From assembly GCA_037127815.1 (NCBI GenBank), contig JBAXXP010000002.1, forward strand, positions 41,490 to 105,489: a stretch of DNA of 64,000 nucleotides, read 5' to 3'. The notes beneath the pieces were generated by a model, which searched no databases, was not told the DNA's origin, and saw only the letters and a list, made by a program, of their open reading frames with translations. Numbering within the stretch: the first letter of the stretch is position 1; every line of letters begins with the position of its first letter. Positions 950 to 39,924 of this stretch are shown piece by piece. Source of the DNA: a bacterium (lineage in GTDB: Bacteria; Patescibacteriota; Minisyncoccia; Phycocordibacterales; CAIZLB01). The translations under genes were made by a program, and so were the position numbers.

Positions 950-2755
950 ATGAAAGACTACTTAAAAGTATTTAAATTCAGTGTTAAGCAAGCAATAAAA
1001 TCAGCGCCAGTTTTGACAGTATCACTAGCTGTTATTATTTTTCTTAGTGCTCAAATTCCTTTCCTTGGATATAAAATATCAGCTGATATTATTAACAATT
1101 TGATTGATTATGCTAAAAATCCTGGAGCTGGACTAGCTATGGTTTTTAAACTTGCGTTATTGTGGGCGTTAGTTGAATCAGCAATGAGTTTATTAAGTAG
1201 ATTGAATGGTTATGTGAATGCAATTTGGAGATATAAACTACAAATAAACTCAGAAAAAATGTTTGCTGAACAGGCTACAAATCTTGATCTAGGTAGGCTT
1301 GAAAGTAAGGATTTTCAAAATTTAAAACAACGAGCATTGAGAAGGCAAATGTTCCCATTGGTTGAAGTTTTTTCATATTTCCTCTATATAATTAATCCGG
1401 TTTCCATAATCATAACCTCATCTCTTATTATTGGATTATTGGACTGGAGAATTTATTTAATTACAATAGTTTCGATAATACCTCAGATATTAATTGAAAG
1501 AAAATATGGAAAAAAGAGCTGGGGTATTTGGAGTAGTGGAGGTGGGGAGGATCAAAGAAGGTACTATGAATATAGATCACATATTACAAATACAGACAGA
1601 TTGCCTGAGGTTAAGAGATTTGGATCTTTAAATTATTTTAAAGAAAAAACATTTAACATATTTAAGGAGACAACTGAGAAATTGCAGAAGAATGAAGGTG
1701 AGAGATTCAAGAAATATACTGGAGTTGAGGTAATAAACATAGTCAGTTTTATAGCTGTTATATTTATTTTATTGACACATATTACAGATGGAAAGATATT
1801 AATTGGAGCCTTCCTTTTCTACTCTCAAACTATAGATAAGTTCTCTGGAGCGGTTTCAAACCTATTTGTTGGTATGGCATATCAGGAAGAAAATATCGCT
1901 CTATCAAATGATATTATTGACTTTCTTAATGTTAAACCTTTAATACAAACTCATAAGCCTGTGGAATTTCCTATTAAAACACCAGACGTCGGACCTGAAA
2001 TTATATTCGATAATGTTGTTTTTTCATATCCTGATACCGACAAGATAATACTTGATGGCGTATCGTTTATAATTAAATCAGGCGAGAGAGTTGGTCTTAT
2101 TGGAATAAACGGTGCTGGTAAGTCAACTATTGTTAAGTTGCTACTTAGAATGTATGATCCTACCTCAGGAAAAATCACAGTTGATGGAATTGATTTGAAA
2201 CATATAAGACCAGAAGATTGGTGGGTTCATTTATCTACTTTGATGCAGGACTTTAATAAATACACTGCCTTAACATTACGTGAATCCTTGATGATATGTA
2301 ATCTAGATAGAAGTAATAAAATCGATGAAGAAAGATTCATTGCAAGTCTTAAGAAAAGTAAGGCTGATGAGTTTGTGGAGAAATGGGATAATAAATATGA
2401 TTCAATGTTAGGAAAGGAATTTGCGGGAGAGTCATTATCAAAAGGACAGGCTCAGAAATTAGCACTCGCAAGAGCTTTCTACAAAGAAGCATCTGTTATG
2501 ATACTCGATGAACCAACAGCTTCAATTGATGCGGAATCAGAAATTGGAATATTTGAGGAATTAGAGAATCTACCTAGAACAGTTTCTATTCTTTATATTA
2601 GCCATGATATGGCAACAATCAGAAAGGCTGATAAAATAATGTTAATTGAAGATGGAAAGATTGTAGAAAGTGGTAATCATGATGAGCTTATAGATTTCAA
2701 TCGACATTACGCAAGGATATTTAATAGTCAGCTTAATAACTTAATACAGGAATAA
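950..2755 (+). CDS. ABC transporter, fused permease/ATP-binding exporter (MsbA-like)
   Basis: N-terminal multi-TM region, then Walker A GINGAGKST, ABC signature LSKGQAQKLALARA, Walker B ILDEPTASID and H-loop SHD. Confidence 0.85.
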   Translation: MKDYLKVFKFSVKQAIKSAPVLTVSLAVIIFLSAQIPFLGYKISADIINNLIDYAKNPGAGLAMVFKLALLWALVESAMSLLSRLNGYVNAIWRYKLQINSEKMFAEQATNLDLGRLESKDFQNLKQRALRRQMFPLVEVFSYFLYIINPVSIIITSSLIIGLLDWRIYLITIVSIIPQILIERKYGKKSWGIWSSGGGEDQRRYYEYRSHITNTDRLPEVKRFGSLNYFKEKTFNIFKETTEKLQKNEGERFKKYTGVEVINIVSFIAVIFILLTHITDGKILIGAFLFYSQTIDKFSGAVSNLFVGMAYQEENIALSNDIIDFLNVKPLIQTHKPVEFPIKTPDVGPEIIFDNVVFSYPDTDKIILDGVSFIIKSGERVGLIGINGAGKSTIVKLLLRMYDPTSGKITVDGIDLKHIRPEDWWVHLSTLMQDFNKYTALTLRESLMICNLDRSNKIDEERFIASLKKSKADEFVEKWDNKYDSMLGKEFAGESLSKGQAQKLALARAFYKEASVMILDEPTASIDAESEIGIFEELENLPRTVSILYISHDMATIRKADKIMLIEDGKIVESGNHDELIDFNRHYARIFNSQLNNLIQE

Positions 2756-2849
2756 ACCCTAGTGGTTGATTTTGTAAGATTGATTCAGGGCTATTTGCTC
2801 AAACATCGAAAATAAGTATAATTTTTAACATAACAACCCTTACAAAACC

Positions 2850-3503
2850 ATGAAAGACGACATACAAAAGCAAAACATAGGAGATATCCAATTAGATGAC
2901 GAGGAAACTACAGCACCATATACAGCTAGCGATATAAAGGATTCATTGGATGATGCAGAATCTGAAGACCTTGATGTGGAGGAGTTTGTTGATACTGATG
3001 AGGAAGGTAAGGAGGTTGGATCATCAGAAAAGCTAAAGCAATTAAGAGAAAAACTTAAGATTGCCATTAATGAGAAACAAGAATACCTAACAGGTTGGCA
3101 AAAGGAAAAAGCTGAGTTTGTAAACATAAGAAGAAGAGATGAGGAATCAAAACAAGAATTTCTAAAATTTGCTACTCAAAATCTATTGGAGGAATTTATA
3201 CCAGTTATAGATAGTTTCGATATGGCAATGTCTAATAAAGTAGCCTGGGAGGCGGTATCTTTGGAGTGGAGAAACGGAATGGAGAAAATTTATAATCAAT
3301 TCAAGGCAGTTTTGTCAAAGAATGATGTTACAGAATTTGGAGAAATAGGTGATAAGGCAGATCCTGCAAAATTCCATATGATTGGAGTAGATAGTACAAC
3401 CGATGCTAAACTCGATGAAACTGTTTCTTCGGTTTTACAAAAAGGATACATGGTCAAGGACAAAGTTTTAAGACCTGCGATGGTTAGGGTTTTTCAAAAA
3501 TAA
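2850..3503 (+). CDS. grpE: Nucleotide exchange factor GrpE
   Basis: Acidic N-terminus, coiled-coil (KLKQLREKLKIAINEKQEYLTGWQKEKAEFVNIRRR) and GrpE C-terminal fold motifs (LLEEFIPVIDSFDMAM). It sits just upstream of dnaK. Confidence 0.85.
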   Translation: MKDDIQKQNIGDIQLDDEETTAPYTASDIKDSLDDAESEDLDVEEFVDTDEEGKEVGSSEKLKQLREKLKIAINEKQEYLTGWQKEKAEFVNIRRRDEESKQEFLKFATQNLLEEFIPVIDSFDMAMSNKVAWEAVSLEWRNGMEKIYNQFKAVLSKNDVTEFGEIGDKADPAKFHMIGVDSTTDAKLDETVSSVLQKGYMVKDKVLRPAMVRVFQK

Positions 3504-3561
3504 TAAGCGGAAACGATACTCAAAAACCTTGACAGGTGTGCTATAATATAAAAACAAGAAG

Positions 3562-4077
3562 ATGATAATCGCTCAAAAGACCTATAAACATAAGGTTTTA
3601 CTGCTAATGAAGGTAGGATTAGCGGTTTTTATGGTGGTTGTTTTTTTGGCTCAAAATGCTCAATCTGGGGTATATGAGGCTGGAAATTATGCCTACAAAA
3701 GGCTGAATGCCAATGAGACTCAGTATTTCCTAAATAGCCTAAATACTCTGTCTGACGGAGCTGTAGGTGGCCTAGGAATGGGTCAGCAAGCTATTCAAGG
3801 ATTGAATCTAGAGCTACTTTCTGCTCAAATTTCAGAGCATATTAGAACAGCTGTTGAACCACTACTTCTTCATGAGGCTTCAATAATAAGCAATATTTCT
3901 CCATTATTTACAGCACATCAAAGTTCAAATAATATTCTGATATATTCTTTTGTCTTGGGTGTACTCGCTCTACTATTAATTGATAGACAAAAACTAATGT
4001 TTAAAGATGGTCAATTTATGAGACTCAAAAAATCACTTGTAAGTATTTCACCAAGATCTCCAAACTCAGTTATCTAA
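3562..4077 (+). CDS. Hypothetical membrane-anchored protein between grpE and dnaK
   Basis: N-terminal hydrophobic segment (LLLMKVGLAVFMVVVFLAQ) and a second hydrophobic stretch near the C-terminus. No recognisable domain. An extended -10 (TGCTATAAT) lies at ~3534-3542. Confidence 0.35.
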   Translation: MIIAQKTYKHKVLLLMKVGLAVFMVVVFLAQNAQSGVYEAGNYAYKRLNANETQYFLNSLNTLSDGAVGGLGMGQQAIQGLNLELLSAQISEHIRTAVEPLLLHEASIISNISPLFTAHQSSNNILIYSFVLGVLALLLIDRQKLMFKDGQFMRLKKSLVSISPRSPNSVI

Positions 4078-4210
4078 TTTAGAATTTGTTTGATGTGTTT
4101 GATATATTCAACACATTCAACATATTCCACTTTACAAATTTATTAAATGATATTGGTAAAAACCAATAGAGGAAAATTAAAAGAAAATAATTAAATAACT
4201 AAATAAAACT

Positions 4211-6139
4211 ATGGCTAAAATAATAGGAATAGACTTGGGAACAACTAACTCGGCCGTTGCCGTAATGGAGGCTGGGGCTCCAAAGATTCTAGAGAACGCA
4301 GAAGGTTCAAGAACAACACCTTCAATTGTGGCAATCTCAAAGACAAATGAGAGACTTGTTGGATTATTAGCAAAGCGTCAAGCTGTAACTAATCCAAAGA
4401 ATACCGTTTATGGTATCAAGAGATTTATCGGGCACAGTTTTGATGAGGCCGGAGTTCAAGCTGATCTAAAAACCGTAGCTTACGATCTTTCAAAGGCAGC
4501 AAACGGTGGAGTTAATATAAAGATGGCTGACAAGGATTACTCTGCAGAAGAAGTTTCTGCAATGATTCTTTCAAAAATTAAGGCTGATGTTGAGGCAAAA
4601 CTTGGTGAGAAAATTACACAGGCTGTTATTACAGTTCCTGCATACTTCAATGACTCACAAAGACAAGCGACAAAGGATGCTGGTAAAATTGCAGGACTTG
4701 AAGTAATGAGAATCATTAATGAGCCAACAGCAGCGGCTCTTGCTTATGGATTCAACAAAAAGAAGGATGAGAAATTAGCAGTCTTTGACTTTGGAGGAGG
4801 AACATTTGATATCTCAATTCTAGAAGTTGGTGATGAAGTTGTCGAGGTTAAAGCAACAGACGGAGACCATAGACTTGGAGGACGCGATATTGATTACAAA
4901 CTATTAAATTACATCGCTGATGAATTTAAGAAAGAAAACGGAATTGATCTTAGAAAAGACCCTCTTGCAATGCAAAGGCTTGATGAGTCAGCTGAGAAGG
5001 CAAAGATTGAACTTTCAACAGCGACAGAAACAGAAATAAATATTCCTTTTATTGCTAACGATGATTCAGGACCAAGACACTTGGTACTTAAAATTACTCG
5101 TGCAAAATTGGAAGAAATTGCTGATGAATTCATAGAGCGCGCAATGCAAATTACAAAGCGTGCAATTGAGGCTTCACCATTTAAGGTGGCTGATATTAAT
5201 GAAATTATCCTAGTTGGAGGACAAACAAGAATGCCAAAACTTAGAGAGACTGTTAAAGCTTTCTTTGGAAAGGAACCAAATCTTACAATTAATCCTGATG
5301 AAGTTGTCGCCCTAGGTGCTGCAATTCAAGGTGGAGTTCTTGGAGGAGATGTCACTGGAATTCTACTTCTAGACGTTATTCCACTTTCACTTGGAATTGA
5401 AACTATGGGAAATGTTACAACAAAACTTATTGAAAGAAATACAACTATCCCTACATCACGTTCACAAGTTTTCTCAACTGCGGCGGACAATCAAACATCT
5501 GTAGAGATTCATATTGTTCAAGGTGAGCGTGCTCTTGCGCAAGACAATAAGTCACTAGGTAGATTTATTCTAGATGGTGTTCCACCAGCACCACGTGGTA
5601 TGCCCCAAGTTGAGGTTACTTTTGATGTTGATGCAAACGGAATCCTAAGTGTTAAAGCAAAGGAGAAGGCAACAAACAAAGAACAATCAATTAGAATTGA
5701 AGCAAGCTCAAGTCTTTCAAAAGAGGATATTGAGAAGATGAAGCAAGATGCTGAACTTCACGCAGCTGATGATGTTAAGAAGAAAGAGGAAATTGAAATG
5801 AGAAATACTGCTGATAACATGATTTACACAGCGGAAAAGGCTATCAGAGAGAATAAGGAAAAGATTCCAGCTGAGGTTATAACGGGAGTTGAGGAAAAGG
5901 TTACTGCACTTCGTGCTATTAAGGATACTGGTGAAATTGAAGCTGTTAAAAAAGCATCTGAAGAACTTTCAACTGAAATTTCAAAGATTGGTGAAGCGCT
6001 TTCAAAGGCAGCACCCGCTCCTGAGGCTGGAGCTACTCCAGGGGCTGAATCTGCAACAGAACCCGCAACTGGACCAGAAACTGGATCAACAGAAAAAACA
6101 CCAGAGGGTGACAATGTTAGAGATGCGGAGACAAAATAA
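4211..6139 (+). CDS. dnaK: Chaperone DnaK (Hsp70)
   Basis: [22 protein letters not shown]..., DLGGGTFD, the Hsp70 signatures and an acidic, Gly/Ala/Pro-rich tail. Confidence 0.95.
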
Positions 6140-25089: not shown

Positions 25090-25698
25090 ATGAACAATAT
25101 GGTAAAAGTATTTAAGAAATCAATATCAGGTGATCAGAATAACAGCAATAATGACGCCAATGTTTTTTCATCTGAACAAAGTTACAGTAATAGCGACAGT
25201 TTTGTTACTCACAAAGAACTTGTCTCCGTATATTATGGTATAAAAGACGACATGCAAAATTCCGACAATGAATTTAGACTTGAGTTTGTGGCTGTAAAAA
25301 ATGACATCGGTAAACTTGATGAAAAATTCACAAAAGAATTTTTGAGTGTAAAAGATGAGATAAGGGTCTCTAGAGAAGAATCTCACAGAGAACTTATAGA
25401 GGTTAGAAATGAATTAATAGCTAGATTTGATAAAAGATTTGATGGTATTACATCTGATGTTGGTACATTAAAGTGCAATATAACCGTATTACAATCTGAT
25501 ATGGAGACATTACAGAATGATGTAGTTATATTGAAGAATGATGTAGTTATATTGAAGAATGATGTAGTTATATTGAAGAATGATGTAGCGGTACTAAAAG
25601 AGGATATGGCTGCGGTAAAAGATTACCTATTTACAAAACTTGTATCAGACATAAGAATGGTTGTCATGGAGTGTTTTACAGAAAAAGGGATTAATTAA
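25090..25698 (+). CDS. Coiled-coil protein with heptad tandem repeats (NDVVILK)n
   Basis: Predicted helical/coiled-coil protein whose C-terminal part is encoded by a 21-bp tandem DNA repeat. Confidence 0.45.
   Translation: MNNMVKVFKKSISGDQNNSNNDANVFSSEQSYSNSDSFVTHKELVSVYYGIKDDMQNSDNEFRLEFVAVKNDIGKLDEKFTKEFLSVKDEIRVSREESHRELIEVRNELIARFDKRFDGITSDVGTLKCNITVLQSDMETLQNDVVILKNDVVILKNDVVILKNDVAVLKEDMAAVKDYLFTKLVSDIRMVVMECFTEKGIN
25516..25591 (+). repeat. 21-bp tandem repeat, about 3.6 copies (AATGATGTAGTTATATTGAAG)
   Basis: Three perfect units plus a partial one, in frame, encoding NDVVILK repeats. Confidence 0.9.
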
Positions 25699-25768: not shown

Positions 25769-25796
25769 TTGATTCTTTATCATTGTTTGCTATACT
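25769..25796 (+). promoter_or_regulatory. Sigma70-like promoter (TTGATT-16-TATACT) driving the aspS leader
   Basis: Good -35/-10 pair with 16-nt spacing. The predicted TSS is ~25803, giving a ~240-nt leader. Confidence 0.45.
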
Positions 25797-25803
25797 TTGA
25801 ATA

Positions 25804-26040
25804 AGCCGTTGAATCGATTAACACCGATGAGGCGAGGAAAGAAAATTTGCTAAATTACACCTAGAAATAGGCAGGATTTGAGCAAACCAGTAGAATCCTC
25901 CGTTCCATGCTACGCAAGCATAATGAGATAAAAAACAGGGTGGCACCGCGATAAAATCGCCCCTGCAAATTTATTATTAAACGTAATGAGTTTGTAGGGG
26001 TTATTTTGTTGGAAAATTTCAAAAAATAACTCTTGCAATA
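25804..26040 (+). promoter_or_regulatory. T-box riboswitch leader of aspS (antiterminator/terminator at 25937-26010)
   Basis: Conserved T-box core AGGG-UGGCACC-GCG-auaaaau-CGC-CCCU (25937-25964) has the canonical antiterminator shape, helix A1/A2 with a 7-nt UGGNACC bulge. It overlaps the terminator CGCCCCTGCAAA...TTTGTAGGGG plus a U-run (25958-26010). UGGC would pair with a G73-CCA acceptor end (tRNA-Asp/Asn). Upstream hairpins are candidate Stem I-III. Confidence 0.6.
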
Positions 26041-26050
26041 ATTAAAAAAC

Positions 26051-27457
26051 ATGAAAAATAGAATATATATAAAAGACCTAAAGGAGCACGCTGGAGAGGA
26101 AGTAACTATCGCAGGGTGGATAGATGTTAGAAGAGATCAAGGAAAATTAATTTTTCTAGATTTTAGAGATAAAACTGGAAAGGTACAAGGAGTAATCTTA
26201 CCAGGTGCAGACGCTGCAAAAGCTGTTGGAGAAACTTTGAGAACAGAATGGGTAGTTGAAGTTTTTGGAAAAGTTAATAATCGTCCAGAAAAAAATGTTC
26301 AGGCTGATAAGCAGAATGGTGATATTGAATTGGAAATTTTAGGAATCACAGTTTTGAATGAAGCAGAAACTCCCGCTTTTGAATTAACAAAAGACACAAT
26401 TGATGTAAGTGAGGAAATAAGATTAAAGTATAGATATTTAGACCTTAGAACTGATCGTCTTCAGAAAAATATCAGAAATAGACATAAGATGGCAAAGTTA
26501 ATCAGAGATATTTTTGATGAACAAGGTTATATAGAAGTTGAGACTCCACTTCTTACAAAGTCTACTCCAGAGGGTGCAAGAGACTTCCTTGTCCCTTCAA
26601 GACTAGAAAAGGGTGCTTTTTATGCTCTTCCACAAAGTCCCCAACAATACAAGCAGTTATTAATGGCAGGAGGGGTTGAAAACTATTTCCAAATTGCAAA
26701 ATGTATGCGCGATGAGGACAGTCGTGGGGATCGCCAGCCTGAATTTACTCAAATGGACGTAGAGGCAAGCTTCGTTACTGAAGAAGATATAATGTCATTA
26801 AATGAAAAAATGTTAATTGATATTGTTACAAAACTTTATCCTGAAAAAAGAATTCAAGAAATTCCTTTCCCAAGAATTCCATATGCTGTTGCGATGGAGA
26901 AATATGGAGTAGATAGACCTGATATTAGAACAGACAAAGAAGATGCAAATCTTTTAGCATTCTGTTGGATTGTTGATTTCCCATTCTTTGAGCGCGATAC
27001 TAAAGGTGGATGGACTTTTACCCACAACCCATTTTCAGCTCCAAAGAAGGAATTTGCAGAGCAATTGATGAATGCAAAAAGAAGTGACACTGGACTTGAG
27101 ACAATTCTTGCTGCTCAATACGATATTGTACTGAACGGTTCAGAAATAGGCGGGGGTAGTATCAGAAATCACAAGGCAGAAGCACTATTTAAGGTGTTTG
27201 AAATTCTTGGCTATGAAAAGGAAAAGGTGGAAAGTGACTTTGAGCATATGATTAAAGCTCTTAAATCAGGAACACCCCCACACGGTGGTATTGCCTGGGG
27301 ACTAGATAGACTTTTGATGCTTCTTGAAAACGAACCAAACATCAGAGAAGTTATGGCTTTCCCAAAGACAGGAGAAGGACGAGACCCAATGATGCAATCA
27401 CCATCTGGAGTTTCTGCTGAGCAACTTAGAGAATTGAATTTGATTATCAAGCAGTAA
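26051..27457 (+). CDS. aspS: Aspartyl-tRNA synthetase, short bacterial-type lacking the GAD insertion (possibly non-discriminating)
   Basis: OB-fold N-terminus, QSPQQYKQLLMAGGVENYFQIAKCMRDEDSRGDRQPEFTQMDVE, GGGSIRNH and GTPPHGGIAWGLDRLLMLL. At 468 aa versus ~590 for GAD-containing enzymes. Confidence 0.9.
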   Translation: MKNRIYIKDLKEHAGEEVTIAGWIDVRRDQGKLIFLDFRDKTGKVQGVILPGADAAKAVGETLRTEWVVEVFGKVNNRPEKNVQADKQNGDIELEILGITVLNEAETPAFELTKDTIDVSEEIRLKYRYLDLRTDRLQKNIRNRHKMAKLIRDIFDEQGYIEVETPLLTKSTPEGARDFLVPSRLEKGAFYALPQSPQQYKQLLMAGGVENYFQIAKCMRDEDSRGDRQPEFTQMDVEASFVTEEDIMSLNEKMLIDIVTKLYPEKRIQEIPFPRIPYAVAMEKYGVDRPDIRTDKEDANLLAFCWIVDFPFFERDTKGGWTFTHNPFSAPKKEFAEQLMNAKRSDTGLETILAAQYDIVLNGSEIGGGSIRNHKAEALFKVFEILGYEKEKVESDFEHMIKALKSGTPPHGGIAWGLDRLLMLLENEPNIREVMAFPKTGEGRDPMMQSPSGVSAEQLRELNLIIKQ

Positions 27458-27484: not shown

Positions 27485-27512
27485 GGGGTCAGGCACCGTG
27501 GTGCCTGACCCC
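27485..27512. repeat. REP-like palindrome (copy 2)
   Basis: GGGGTCAGGCACCGTGGTGCCTGACCCC. Confidence 0.85.
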
Positions 27513-27538
27513 AAACTGTATGCTATAATAAAGTCTAA

Positions 27539-37986: not shown

Positions 37987-39924
37987 ATGTGTGGAATAGC
38001 AGGAATAATTGGAAATAAAGAAATATCATCTACATCAATTGACAAGATGGTTGATATTATTAGTCATAGAGGCCCAGATGACAGAGGTATTTTGAATGAT
38101 GATAAATTCTCTTTTGGAATGAGAAGATTGTCTATCATAGACCTAGAAGGAGGACATCAACCAATGTCTAATGAGGATGGAAGTATTACTGTTGTATTCA
38201 ACGGTGAAATTTATAATTACAAAGAACTAAGACCCAGCCTGCTTGCGCTTGGCCACACATTTAAAACAGAAAGTGATACCGAGGGTTTGGTTCACCTGTA
38301 TGAGGAGTATGGTAAGGATATGGTTAAATATTTAAGAGGTATGTTTGCTTTTGCAATTTACGATTCTAATAAGAATCAGATTTTTATTGCACGTGATCAT
38401 TTTGGAATTAAGCCATTATACTTTTCAACTGATAAGGATTCTACAATCGATAATAATCCAAACGGAGGTAATCTACTTTCATTTGGATCAGAAATAAAAA
38501 GCATACTACTGGATCCTCGAATCAAAAAAGAAATAAACCATGAGGGGGTTTATCAATATTTATCTTTTCAATATAATCCTTTATCTGAAACTCTATTTAA
38601 AAGAATATTCAAGTTAACTCCTGGACATCATCTAACAATAGATTTGAGTAAGGAAAATGAATCGCCTTTTGTAATAGAAAAATATTGGAATTATGAATTT
38701 GATGGGGCAAAAAACACAAAGAAATCTAATATATCTGAAGCCTTAATTGAGAAACAATTAGCTGACAAGACAAGAGAAATTGTAACAGATTCTGTTGCAC
38801 ATCATATGATAAGTGATGTGCCTGTTGGTACGTTTCTATCAGGAGGAATTGATAGCGGTATAATTGCAACACTAGTTCAGGAAGAGAGAAATAAAGCTAA
38901 TATGGGGCCTGTATCCACCTTTACCATCGGCTTTAAAGAAGTTAGCGAACAGGCAGCAGCTAAGGAAGTAGCAGACAGAATTGGATCAGAGCATAATGAA
39001 ATCCTAATTACATTTGAGGAATATTTAAAAGAGCTACCTAAAATTGTTTGGTATTTTGACGAACCAGTAGCTGACCCGTCAGCGGTTTCATTATTTTTCC
39101 TTGCGAGAGAAGCTAGAAAGAAAGTGAAGGTAGTGCTCTCAGGAGAAGGAGCTGATGAGTTTTTTGGTGGATATAATATTTACAGAGAACCCCTAGATAT
39201 AAAAATTATTGAATCATTGCCAGAATGGATAAAATATTTTTTCTTAAGACCTTTTCTTCTTTTGCCATTTAATTTCTTAGGTAAAAATTTTATAAGAAGG
39301 GGAGTAACAAAATTGGAGGATAGGTATATTGGTAATGCAAATATTTTCAATAAAAAAGACCGTGATTTAATTTGGAAAAAAGAAAAATATTTACCAAAGT
39401 TTTTACCAAAAGATATTCTTAGTAAATTATATGTAGAGATGAGAGGGGAGAATGACTCTAGAAAAATGCAATACGTAGATATTAATACTTGGCTGCAAGG
39501 GGACATATTAGCAAAGGCAGACAAGATGACTATGGCAAATTCATTAGAGCTTCGAGTTCCCTTCCTCGATAAAAATGTAGCTGAGTTCTCAGAAACTATT
39601 CCTGATAAGTTTAAATATAAGGATAAGAAAACTAAATATATTTTAAGAAAGGCCTTTGAAGATATACTTCCTAGGACGACAGCAGAACGCAGAAAATTAG
39701 GTTTTCCAACCCCTTTTGGAGCTTGGCTTAAAAATAGTCCAGATGAAGTTATGAACATAATTCTTAATAATGAATACATCAAGGAGTATATGAATATGGA
39801 CTTTATAAAGGATTTAGTAGAAAAACATGTAAACGGTAAGATGATTGGAAAAGTAGATATATCAAGAAAGATTTATGCATTATTAATGCTCGCCTTGTGG
39901 TATAATGAATTTATAAAAGAATAA
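37987..39924 (+). CDS. asnB: Asparagine synthetase B (glutamine-hydrolysing)
   Basis: Ntn-amidotransferase start MCGIAGIIG and the PP-loop SGGIDSG in the synthetase domain. Confidence 0.9.
   Translation: MCGIAGIIGNKEISSTSIDKMVDIISHRGPDDRGILNDDKFSFGMRRLSIIDLEGGHQPMSNEDGSITVVFNGEIYNYKELRPSLLALGHTFKTESDTEGLVHLYEEYGKDMVKYLRGMFAFAIYDSNKNQIFIARDHFGIKPLYFSTDKDSTIDNNPNGGNLLSFGSEIKSILLDPRIKKEINHEGVYQYLSFQYNPLSETLFKRIFKLTPGHHLTIDLSKENESPFVIEKYWNYEFDGAKNTKKSNISEALIEKQLADKTREIVTDSVAHHMISDVPVGTFLSGGIDSGIIATLVQEERNKANMGPVSTFTIGFKEVSEQAAAKEVADRIGSEHNEILITFEEYLKELPKIVWYFDEPVADPSAVSLFFLAREARKKVKVVLSGEGADEFFGGYNIYREPLDIKIIESLPEWIKYFFLRPFLLLPFNFLGKNFIRRGVTKLEDRYIGNANIFNKKDRDLIWKKEKYLPKFLPKDILSKLYVEMRGENDSRKMQYVDINTWLQGDILAKADKMTMANSLELRVPFLDKNVAEFSETIPDKFKYKDKKTKYILRKAFEDILPRTTAERRKLGFPTPFGAWLKNSPDEVMNIILNNEYIKEYMNMDFIKDLVEKHVNGKMIGKVDISRKIYALLMLALWYNEFIKE

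Follow-up and report, generated by a model that had tools for sequence, protein, structure and literature searches.

A probable T-box riboswitch with an ultrashort Stem I ahead of aspS in an uncultivated Patescibacteria lineage

Does the long untranslated leader ahead of an aspartyl-tRNA synthetase gene in an ultrasmall bacterium act as a tRNA-sensing switch, and if so, which tRNA would it read? The window, by which we mean the whole 64,000-nt stretch of DNA analysed here, comes from an uncultivated ultrasmall bacterium of the Patescibacteria/CPR and carries the aaRS genes proS, hisS, trpS, aspS, lysS and gltX together with an asnB-like gene. The leader region is a 352-nt intergenic gap between a repeat-containing ORF (25090-25698) and aspS (26051-27457). 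Within it, positions 25769-26050 hold a promoter, then a T-box leader of 167 nt and an intrinsic terminator that overlaps the leader, all ahead of aspS. An AspRS search returned 160 relatives (63-91% identical, all about 462-480 aa), whose source labels in genomes and metagenomes read Patescibacteria, Paceibacteria, Parcubacteria or Nomurabacteria. The features of the locus are as follows.

25769-25796, + strand: sigma-70-type promoter; -35 TTGATT (25769-25774), 16-nt spacer, -10 TATACT (25791-25796); 9/12 match
25805-25833, + strand: ultrashort Stem I, 29 nt; K-turn, 4-bp helix and apical loop
25820-25823, + strand: best-supported specifier; AAC (Asn codon, 25820-25822) and the conserved 3' purine A (25823)
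25834-25900, + strand: Stem II; basal helix GAGGA/UCCUC, S-turn internal loop, upper helix UUUG/CAAA, variable apex
25901-25921, + strand: Stem IIA/B H-type pseudoknot, 21 nt
25922-25935, + strand: purine-rich linker AAUGAGAUAAAAAA, in the position of Stem III
25936-25965, + strand: antiterminator; A1 CAGGG/CCCUG, bulge UGGCACC (25941-25947), A2 GCGAU/AUCGC; -10.7 kcal/mol
25959-26010, + strand: intrinsic terminator; 19-bp hairpin (25959-26001) followed by the U-run UAUUUUGUU (26002-26010); -24.8 kcal/mol
26051-27457, + strand: aspS; bacterial-type AspRS, 468 aa, GAD-less; NCBIfam aspS_bact (TIGR00459) in two stretches
27485-27512, + strand: perfect GC-rich 3' hairpin of 12-13 bp after the aspS stop codon, without a U-run

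The promoter has an extended -10 element (TGcTATACT, 25788-25796, with the TG present), and TGCTATACT is kept at an equal distance from Stem I in four relatives (L001, L003, L005 and L081). We infer that transcription starts at about 25802-25804. The hairpin after the stop codon probably ends the regulated transcript, in which case aspS would be monocistronic; its terminator function is inferred only, and it has no U-run. Some features of the flanking DNA are recorded here as observations in their own right. The upstream ORF (202 aa, no family assignment) contains a perfect 21-bp tandem repeat of 3.6 copies (25514-25588) that codes for heptads (NDVVILK), and its protein is coiled-coil-like. 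The product of this ORF is 202, 199 or 185 aa long among otherwise identical contigs, which suggests repeat-number variation. On the other side of aspS, an extended -10 element (TGcTATAAT, 27521-27529) ends 9 nt ahead of the scpA ATG (27539), implying a leaderless or near-leaderless scpA mRNA, and the promoter of the aspS leader (TGcTATAcT) has the same form. The density of aaRS genes is itself unusual, with alaS, proS, hisS, trpS, aspS, lysS and gltX in about 50 kb (window 12603-39924, plus 871-2748 of L165). The asnB-like amidotransferase gene (37987-39924) lies amid these dense aaRS genes, among which only aspS has a leader.

To establish whether the leader is a T-box, we rely on the Rfam family model, on chance expectation and on comparison with relatives. 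At the Rfam gathering threshold no T-box match is present in the window, and the sole match is a tRNA-His. In permissive mode, the T-box family RF00230 matches 25800-25967 over the whole model length with 38.3 bits (gathering threshold 93). The E-value is 4e-7 when the region is searched and 5.8e-5 when the whole window is searched with all 4227 families. In this alignment Stem I is cut to 54 nt, as against 85 in the model, and both Stem III strands are deleted. The leaders of ten relatives score 22-57 bits on RF00230, so that standard annotation would not report this leader family. Permissive Rfam searches found no T-box-like match in the window besides the aspS leader, and proS, hisS, trpS, lysS and gltX are thus without a T-box. 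The minimum free energy of the leader lies 4.8 sd below that of shuffled sequences. In 1.51 Mb of related DNA the 12-mer GGTGGCACCGCG is found 43 times where 0.7 copies would be expected, and every copy lies ahead of aspS. Together with the RF00230 E-values, this recurrence places the aspS leader far beyond chance, and we consider it very likely that the element is a real T-box riboswitch.

The 43 core-bearing leaders belong to related Paceibacteria loci. This wider count rests on a motif scan for the exact core; one further leader is that of L006, in which the T-box bulge (5884-5892) is a run of N in the genome collection. The N-masked L006 leader was missed by the motif searches, and the covariance model scored it at 85.8 bits. 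About two thirds of the aspS loci have a short intergenic region and no leader. Loci with and without a leader are interspersed on a rough AspRS tree, so the element is old in the group and has often been lost. A covariance model built from leaders of the window's clade alone found diverged leaders at 20-87 bits and was used to align them. In the resulting alignment of 28 leaders, 96.5% of cells are paired, compared with 39-43% when partners are slid, and both partners vary in 22 of 29 pairs. Covariation scores 0.40, as against 0.06 at most in controls, and no shuffle reaches any observed value. Compensatory changes are present in all seven helices (helices 6 and 7 being the antiterminator) and in the Stem IIA/B pseudoknot. 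The alignment behind these pair counts was itself fitted to the covariance model; only the test on the 3-bp pseudoknot helix described below is free of this limitation. MAFFT alignments of the diverged leaders shifted the IIA/B region by 1-2 nt and were left out of pair counting. Weak covariance-model matches away from aspS (E 0.02-1) and one-mismatch core motifs were both dismissed as being at chance level. In summary, the sequence elements, the competing folds and covariation in every helix are shown.

The 3' half of the leader holds these competing folds. The T-box sequence CAGGGUGGCACCGCG lies at 25936-25950, where A1, the 7-nt bulge and A2 all form, and the conserved 14-nt T-box sequence AGGGUGGNACCGCG is present as an exact copy at 25937-25950. 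All 43 leaders have UGGC in the bulge. A CCCCUG strand is common to the terminator and A1, where the terminator overlaps the 3' strand of the antiterminator, and the two hairpins are therefore mutually exclusive. In most relatives, too, a terminator hairpin (-20 to -37 kcal/mol) overlaps A1 and precedes a U-run. The terminator finder missed the window's clade, in which two unpaired bases separate the stem from the U-run, and the window's terminator was scored separately. The terminator ends 40-50 nt ahead of the aspS ATG and does not cover the start region; among relatives, the distance from hairpin plus U-run to the start codon is variable, at 10-197 nt.

At the 5' end, Stem I consists of a C-stem (GCC/GGC), a 3-nt bulge (GUU), tandem G.A/A.G pairs and the helix AUCG/CGAU, and GCC-GUU-GA...GA-GGC thus forms the K-turn. 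Its two helices (helices 1 and 2) are 97.6% and 98.8% paired in the 28 leaders, and five of their six pairs change on both sides. The 8-nt apical loop AUUAACAC (25817-25824), which contains AAC-A, caps the 4-bp helix directly, and the distal Stem I platform (the AG bulge and distal loop that form interdigitated T-loops for elbow binding) is absent. Every parsed leader shows the apical loop pattern N1-3-[G/A]AC-A-N0-2. In the structure-guided alignment of 28 leaders, the AAC of the window occupies the same apical-loop columns as GAC in orthologues; homology of AAC and GAC across leaders is shown. Parsed leaders carry GAC (Asp) in 23 cases, AAC (Asn) in 15 and other codons in none, and the next base is A in all of them. 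The AAC leaders are those of the window, L001, L002, L003, L005, L081, L006, L094, L022, L026, L034, L090, L091, L128 and L135. They fall in at least five separate places on the AspRS tree, which is a rough one, each with GAC or leaderless neighbours.

A specifier is expected to sit above a K-turn as a codon followed by a purine, and the codon should fit the regulated gene. This requirement is met, with GAC fitting aspS in 23 orthologues. AAC would fit aspS only on the inference that tRNA-Asn is a substrate of this AspRS as well. Against a GUU anticodon AAC forms three Watson-Crick pairs, while against GUC it leaves an A.C mismatch at the first codon position. The comparison therefore gives strong support to AAC-A as the best available specifier assignment. 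The overlapping loop codons UUA, ACA and CAC were rejected, since only the AAC/GAC register is conserved and their cognate tRNAs are not expected with G73. As general background, tRNAs for these three codons are not expected to carry the G73 that UGGC needs.

Stem II and the pseudoknot follow Stem I directly. The S-turn internal loop of Stem II sets AAGAAAA (25839-25845) opposite AGUAGAA (25889-25895), and the AGUAGA motif is found in 20 leaders. All nine pairs of the Stem II helices (helices 3 and 4) change on both sides among the 28 leaders. In the pseudoknot, CGU (25901-25903) pairs with ACG (25912-25914) and AUGCU (25907-25911) with AGCAU (25917-25921). The 5-bp helix (helix 5) is 94% paired, with covariation in 5/5 pairs. 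The 3-bp helix CGU:ACG was left out of the alignment model, so that the model cannot have produced its support; pairing there reaches 94.9%, compensatory changes are seen in 3/3 pairs, and the helix agrees with the Rfam consensus IIA stem 'CGg...cCG'. Swaps in relatives include U-A to A-U, G-C and G.U, and G-C to A-U. The linker that follows keeps the purine strings that flank Stem III (AAUGAG...AAAAAA, compared with the criterion RRRxG-Stem III-AA), and the Stem III helix itself is missing. Stem III is absent also in L054, L058, L068, L093, L094, L119 and L020, and is retained in L036, L039, L105 and L135.

Two further leader arrangements were observed among the relatives. Six aspS leaders are only about 90-97 nt long (L048 5704-5793, L025 5854-5946, L032 707-802, L072 5843-5939, L128 2624-2718 and L038 614-710). 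They consist of a K-turn hairpin with apical GAC or AAC, a purine-rich linker of 22-28 nt (..AAGAG..AAAGUAG) and the antiterminator plus terminator, without Stem II, the pseudoknot or Stem III, and folding gives no extra stable structure. To our knowledge no smaller T-boxes are known, if these short leaders are functional. In L094 (2196-5383), an AAC-type T-box with its terminator (2196-2390) is split from aspS (3995-5383) by an ORF of 469 aa (2535-3944) without an NCBIfam or Pfam match, an apparent insertion into the regulated unit.

These results bear out most of what a preliminary description, made from the sequence alone, had claimed for the leader. The T-box antiterminator it placed upstream of aspS held, with A1, bulge and A2 where it had put them and with support from RF00230 and covariation. 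Its mutually exclusive terminator held through the shared CCCCUG strand, as did its promoter TTGATT-16-TATACT and, in permissive Rfam searches, the lack of a T-box at the other five aaRS genes in the window. The UGGC bulge it described is invariant in 43/43 leaders; the pairing it proposed with the GCCA end of tRNA-Asp or tRNA-Asn rests on general knowledge. Its candidate Asn specifier, AAC-A in a small hairpin, is now strongly supported by its alignment with GAC in orthologues. It had proposed RF00230 and a fold of Stem I as checks, with a missing T-box match as part of the refuting outcome. That part is fulfilled only at the curated gathering threshold (38.3 vs 93 bits) and the match below it is significant, and the fold revealed a K-turn hairpin with an apical specifier followed by a purine. 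The preliminary description did not recognise the ultrashort Stem I with its apical-loop specifier, the missing Stem III or the position of the family below the Rfam threshold.

Whether an Asn codon makes sense ahead of aspS depends on the enzyme. The GAD insertion of about 120 residues is missing from the window's AspRS; in PDB alignments, query residues 297 to 302 span T. thermophilus residues 298 to 418, and the E. coli enzyme gives the same picture. The GAD insertion is usually counted as diagnostic of bacterial-type AspRS (PMC4206432); we observed that all 160 relatives (L001-L160) are bacterial-type yet lack it. We also observed RRDQGK in all 160 relatives, versus RRDLG in the discriminating enzymes of E. 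coli and T. thermophilus. The residue corresponding to P. aeruginosa His31 and E. coli Leu30 is generally known as a marker of non-discriminating AspRS. At this position all family members have Gln, whatever their specifier, and it gives no signal.

Neither asnS nor gatCAB is present in the window plus 10 kb on each side, which is only about 84 kb of the genome, and tRNA scans detected no tRNA-Asp or tRNA-Asn genes in the window or in loci L001-L120. T-box bulges of the form UGGN pair with NCCA, N being the discriminator base, and it is general knowledge that tRNA-Asp and tRNA-Asn both have G73 there. On that basis one G-to-A mutation in the loop would be enough to re-target the switch and would leave the discriminator contact unchanged, and the invariant UGGC is as expected if both effectors carry G73. 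A separate observation concerns L119 (893-3728), where a genuine asnS (655 bits, cutoff 414) lies 17 nt downstream of aspS, so that an aspS-asnS pair stands behind a GAC T-box. An asnS directly behind aspS is found in a single clade (L119, L155 and L076), too few for a correlation, but some Paceibacteria therefore do have a direct AsnRS route. That the only such clade has a GAC leader (L119) may lend the Asn logic some circumstantial support. A further side observation is a fusion protein of about 665 aa encoded roughly 2 kb downstream of aspS in L050 (8171-10177) and L057 (8146-10140). Its N-terminal half resembles glutamyl-tRNA reductase (HemA), and the C-terminal half comprises a class IIb aaRS catalytic core (AspRS/AsnA-like) that lacks an anticodon-binding domain.

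We infer that the AspRS is non-discriminating and makes Asp-tRNA-Asn for GatCAB; neither the activity nor the pathway has been demonstrated. Of the earlier claims on this subject, the GAD-less AspRS held in the PDB alignments, and so did an asnB-like gene without asnS in the window. The suggestion of a non-discriminating AspRS is kept as an inference only, with no asnS or gatCAB in about 84 kb.

Taking these lines together, we propose that the leader is likely a T-box that attenuates transcription of aspS according to the charging state of tRNA-Asn; tRNA binding, the identity of the tRNA and termination in vivo are all inferred. In this model, transcription would start a few bases before Stem I, and the K-turn hairpin would present AAC-A in its apical loop. 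The S-turn-containing Stem II, held by the Stem IIA/B pseudoknot, would dock beside this loop and clamp the codon-anticodon duplex formed with tRNA-Asn (anticodon GUU), standing in for the elbow-binding platform of leaders with a long Stem I. With uncharged tRNA, the 3' GCCA would pair with the UGGC bulge, stabilising the weak antiterminator (-10.7 kcal/mol) against the terminator (-24.8 kcal/mol), and polymerase would enter aspS. When the tRNA is charged with Asp or Asn, the antiterminator would remain unstabilised and transcription would end at the U-run (26002-26010). An Asn specifier on aspS would be sensible if the GAD-less AspRS is non-discriminating and feeds the GatCAB amidotransferase. 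Points against this reading include a score far below the Rfam gathering threshold (38 vs 93 bits) and that function without the elbow platform and Stem III has not been demonstrated; the literature calls both important or indispensable for transcriptional T-boxes (PMC7583486).

The rival that survives best accepts the same functional T-box and assigns it tRNA-Asp, or both tRNA-Asp and tRNA-Asn, as effector, with the first-position A as a tolerated mismatch. In its favour, aspS is the gene under control, and GAC is the majority codon among orthologous leaders. GAC could also pair with a GUU anticodon through a G.U pair, which makes dual sensing conceivable for the family, and relaxed or dual specifier reading has been reported for B. 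cereus lysK and the C. acetobutylicum NT-box (PMC4574755). Against it, AAC:GUC contains an A.C mismatch whereas AAC:GUU is fully Watson-Crick. Moreover, AAC arose at least five times with only A or G at the first position, which points to selection for one of two codons and not to drift. We therefore regard this rival as unlikely and, given a functional T-box, a response to tRNA-Asn as likely.

A second rival holds that the leader is a decaying T-box remnant that senses no tRNA and acts only as a constitutive attenuator or terminator. Consistent with this, it scores below threshold on Rfam, lacks modules called essential (PMC7583486) and belongs to a family in which about two thirds of related aspS loci have lost the leader. 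However, the K-turn, specifier loop, S-turn, pseudoknot, 14-nt T-box and terminator overlap are all kept with compensatory changes among relatives whose AspRS is only about 63-70% identical, and the specifier is always an AspRS-relevant codon. An unrelieved terminator of -25 kcal/mol before an essential single-copy aaRS gene would also be harmful. We consider a remnant very unlikely. Also very unlikely is a class II T-box like those of Actinobacteria, acting on translation by sequestering the ribosome-binding site: a decoding module built from a short Stem I with apical specifier, Stem II and a pseudoknot has so far been tied to translational control (PMC7583486), but the alternative hairpin has a U-run and ends 40-50 nt before the ATG, with the same layout in most relatives, and no Shine-Dalgarno-like sequence is sequestered.

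A bolder reading goes beyond the tRNA-Asn-responsive attenuator that we prefer for the window. It holds that the Paceibacteria possess a previously unrecognised T-box lineage, unseen by Rfam, that terminates transcription with only an apical-loop specifier hairpin, without the elbow platform or Stem III and in some members of about 90 nt without Stem II or the pseudoknot, and in which Asp and Asn specifiers have replaced each other several times ahead of aspS. We give this slightly less than even odds. If true, it would contradict the need for a long Stem I and Stem III in transcriptional T-boxes, would mean that such leaders are truly minimal two-point sensors of tRNA or are assisted by an unknown factor, and would tie AspRS supply in the window's organism to the charging of tRNA-Asn.

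The family matters in several other respects. Its leaders form a natural deletion series, in which the window's form lacks Stem III and relatives either keep Stem III or also lose Stem II, down to about 90 nt. All members of this series have intrinsic terminators, and the series directly tests what parts a T-box under kinetic control requires. Recurrent exchange of GAC and AAC ahead of the same orthologous gene, with UGGC unchanged throughout, is a clean evolutionary example of riboswitch re-targeting by one mutation, and the GAC/AAC specifier offers a sequence-based predictor of reliance on the indirect Asn-tRNA pathway in CPR genomes. The curated Rfam thresholds miss this whole T-box clade. 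Gene regulation in Patescibacteria/CPR has been described as virtually unknown (PMC11665869), and a conserved riboswitch native to these bacteria supplies a concrete element of it that might also serve as a genetic tool. The literature searched contains no report of T-box riboswitches in CPR, Patescibacteria, Parcubacteria or Saccharibacteria, and none is mentioned in TBDB; the preliminary description's remark that a T-box would be notable in this lineage accordingly held.

Three known systems frame the comparison. The transcriptional T-boxes of Firmicutes (RF00230; B. subtilis tyrS and glyQS) resemble the window's leader in controlling an aaRS gene. Unlike them, the leader has a Stem I of 29 nt without the distal platform of interdigitated T-loops, and its specifier is apical where theirs sits in a side bulge; it also lacks the Stem III helix, scores 38 bits against a gathering threshold of 93 and comes from a CPR host. 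Its inferred logic is preceded by that of the C. acetobutylicum T-box with Asn/Glu specifiers that controls a transamidation operon (Saad 2012/2013, via PMC4052509 and PMC4574755). The proposed use of an Asn-specifier T-box, through which uncharged tRNA-Asn would raise the capacity of the indirect pathway, is shared with this NT-box. The NT-box, however, belongs to the Firmicute leaders with a long Stem I, and its two overlapping codons (Asn and Glu) stand on a multi-gene operon, whereas the window's leader has a single AAC in a minimal hairpin on an apparently monocistronic aspS.

The actinobacterial ileS T-boxes (M. tuberculosis, M. smegmatis and N. farcinica; Sherwood 2015; PDB 6UFG and 6UFM, via PMC7583486) share the short Stem I, the apical specifier and the K-turn, which is essential there, as well as the decoding module of Stem II S-turn and compact pseudoknot; neither system contacts the elbow. 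For these leaders it is established that a short Stem I carries the specifier in its apical loop, with help from Stem II and the pseudoknot (PMC7583486, PMC11297988). They are translational by means of an anti-Shine-Dalgarno sequestrator, keep Stem III and control ileS, whereas the window's leader has an intrinsic terminator and no Stem III, controls aspS and belongs to Patescibacteria. Of the features that define class II (PMC7583486), it thus has the decoding module and not the platform that sequesters the Shine-Dalgarno sequence. What is new is the architecture and its phylogenetic position, and not a new kind of system: the leader is a hybrid that joins a decoding module of the translational actinobacterial type to a transcription terminator, without Stem III.
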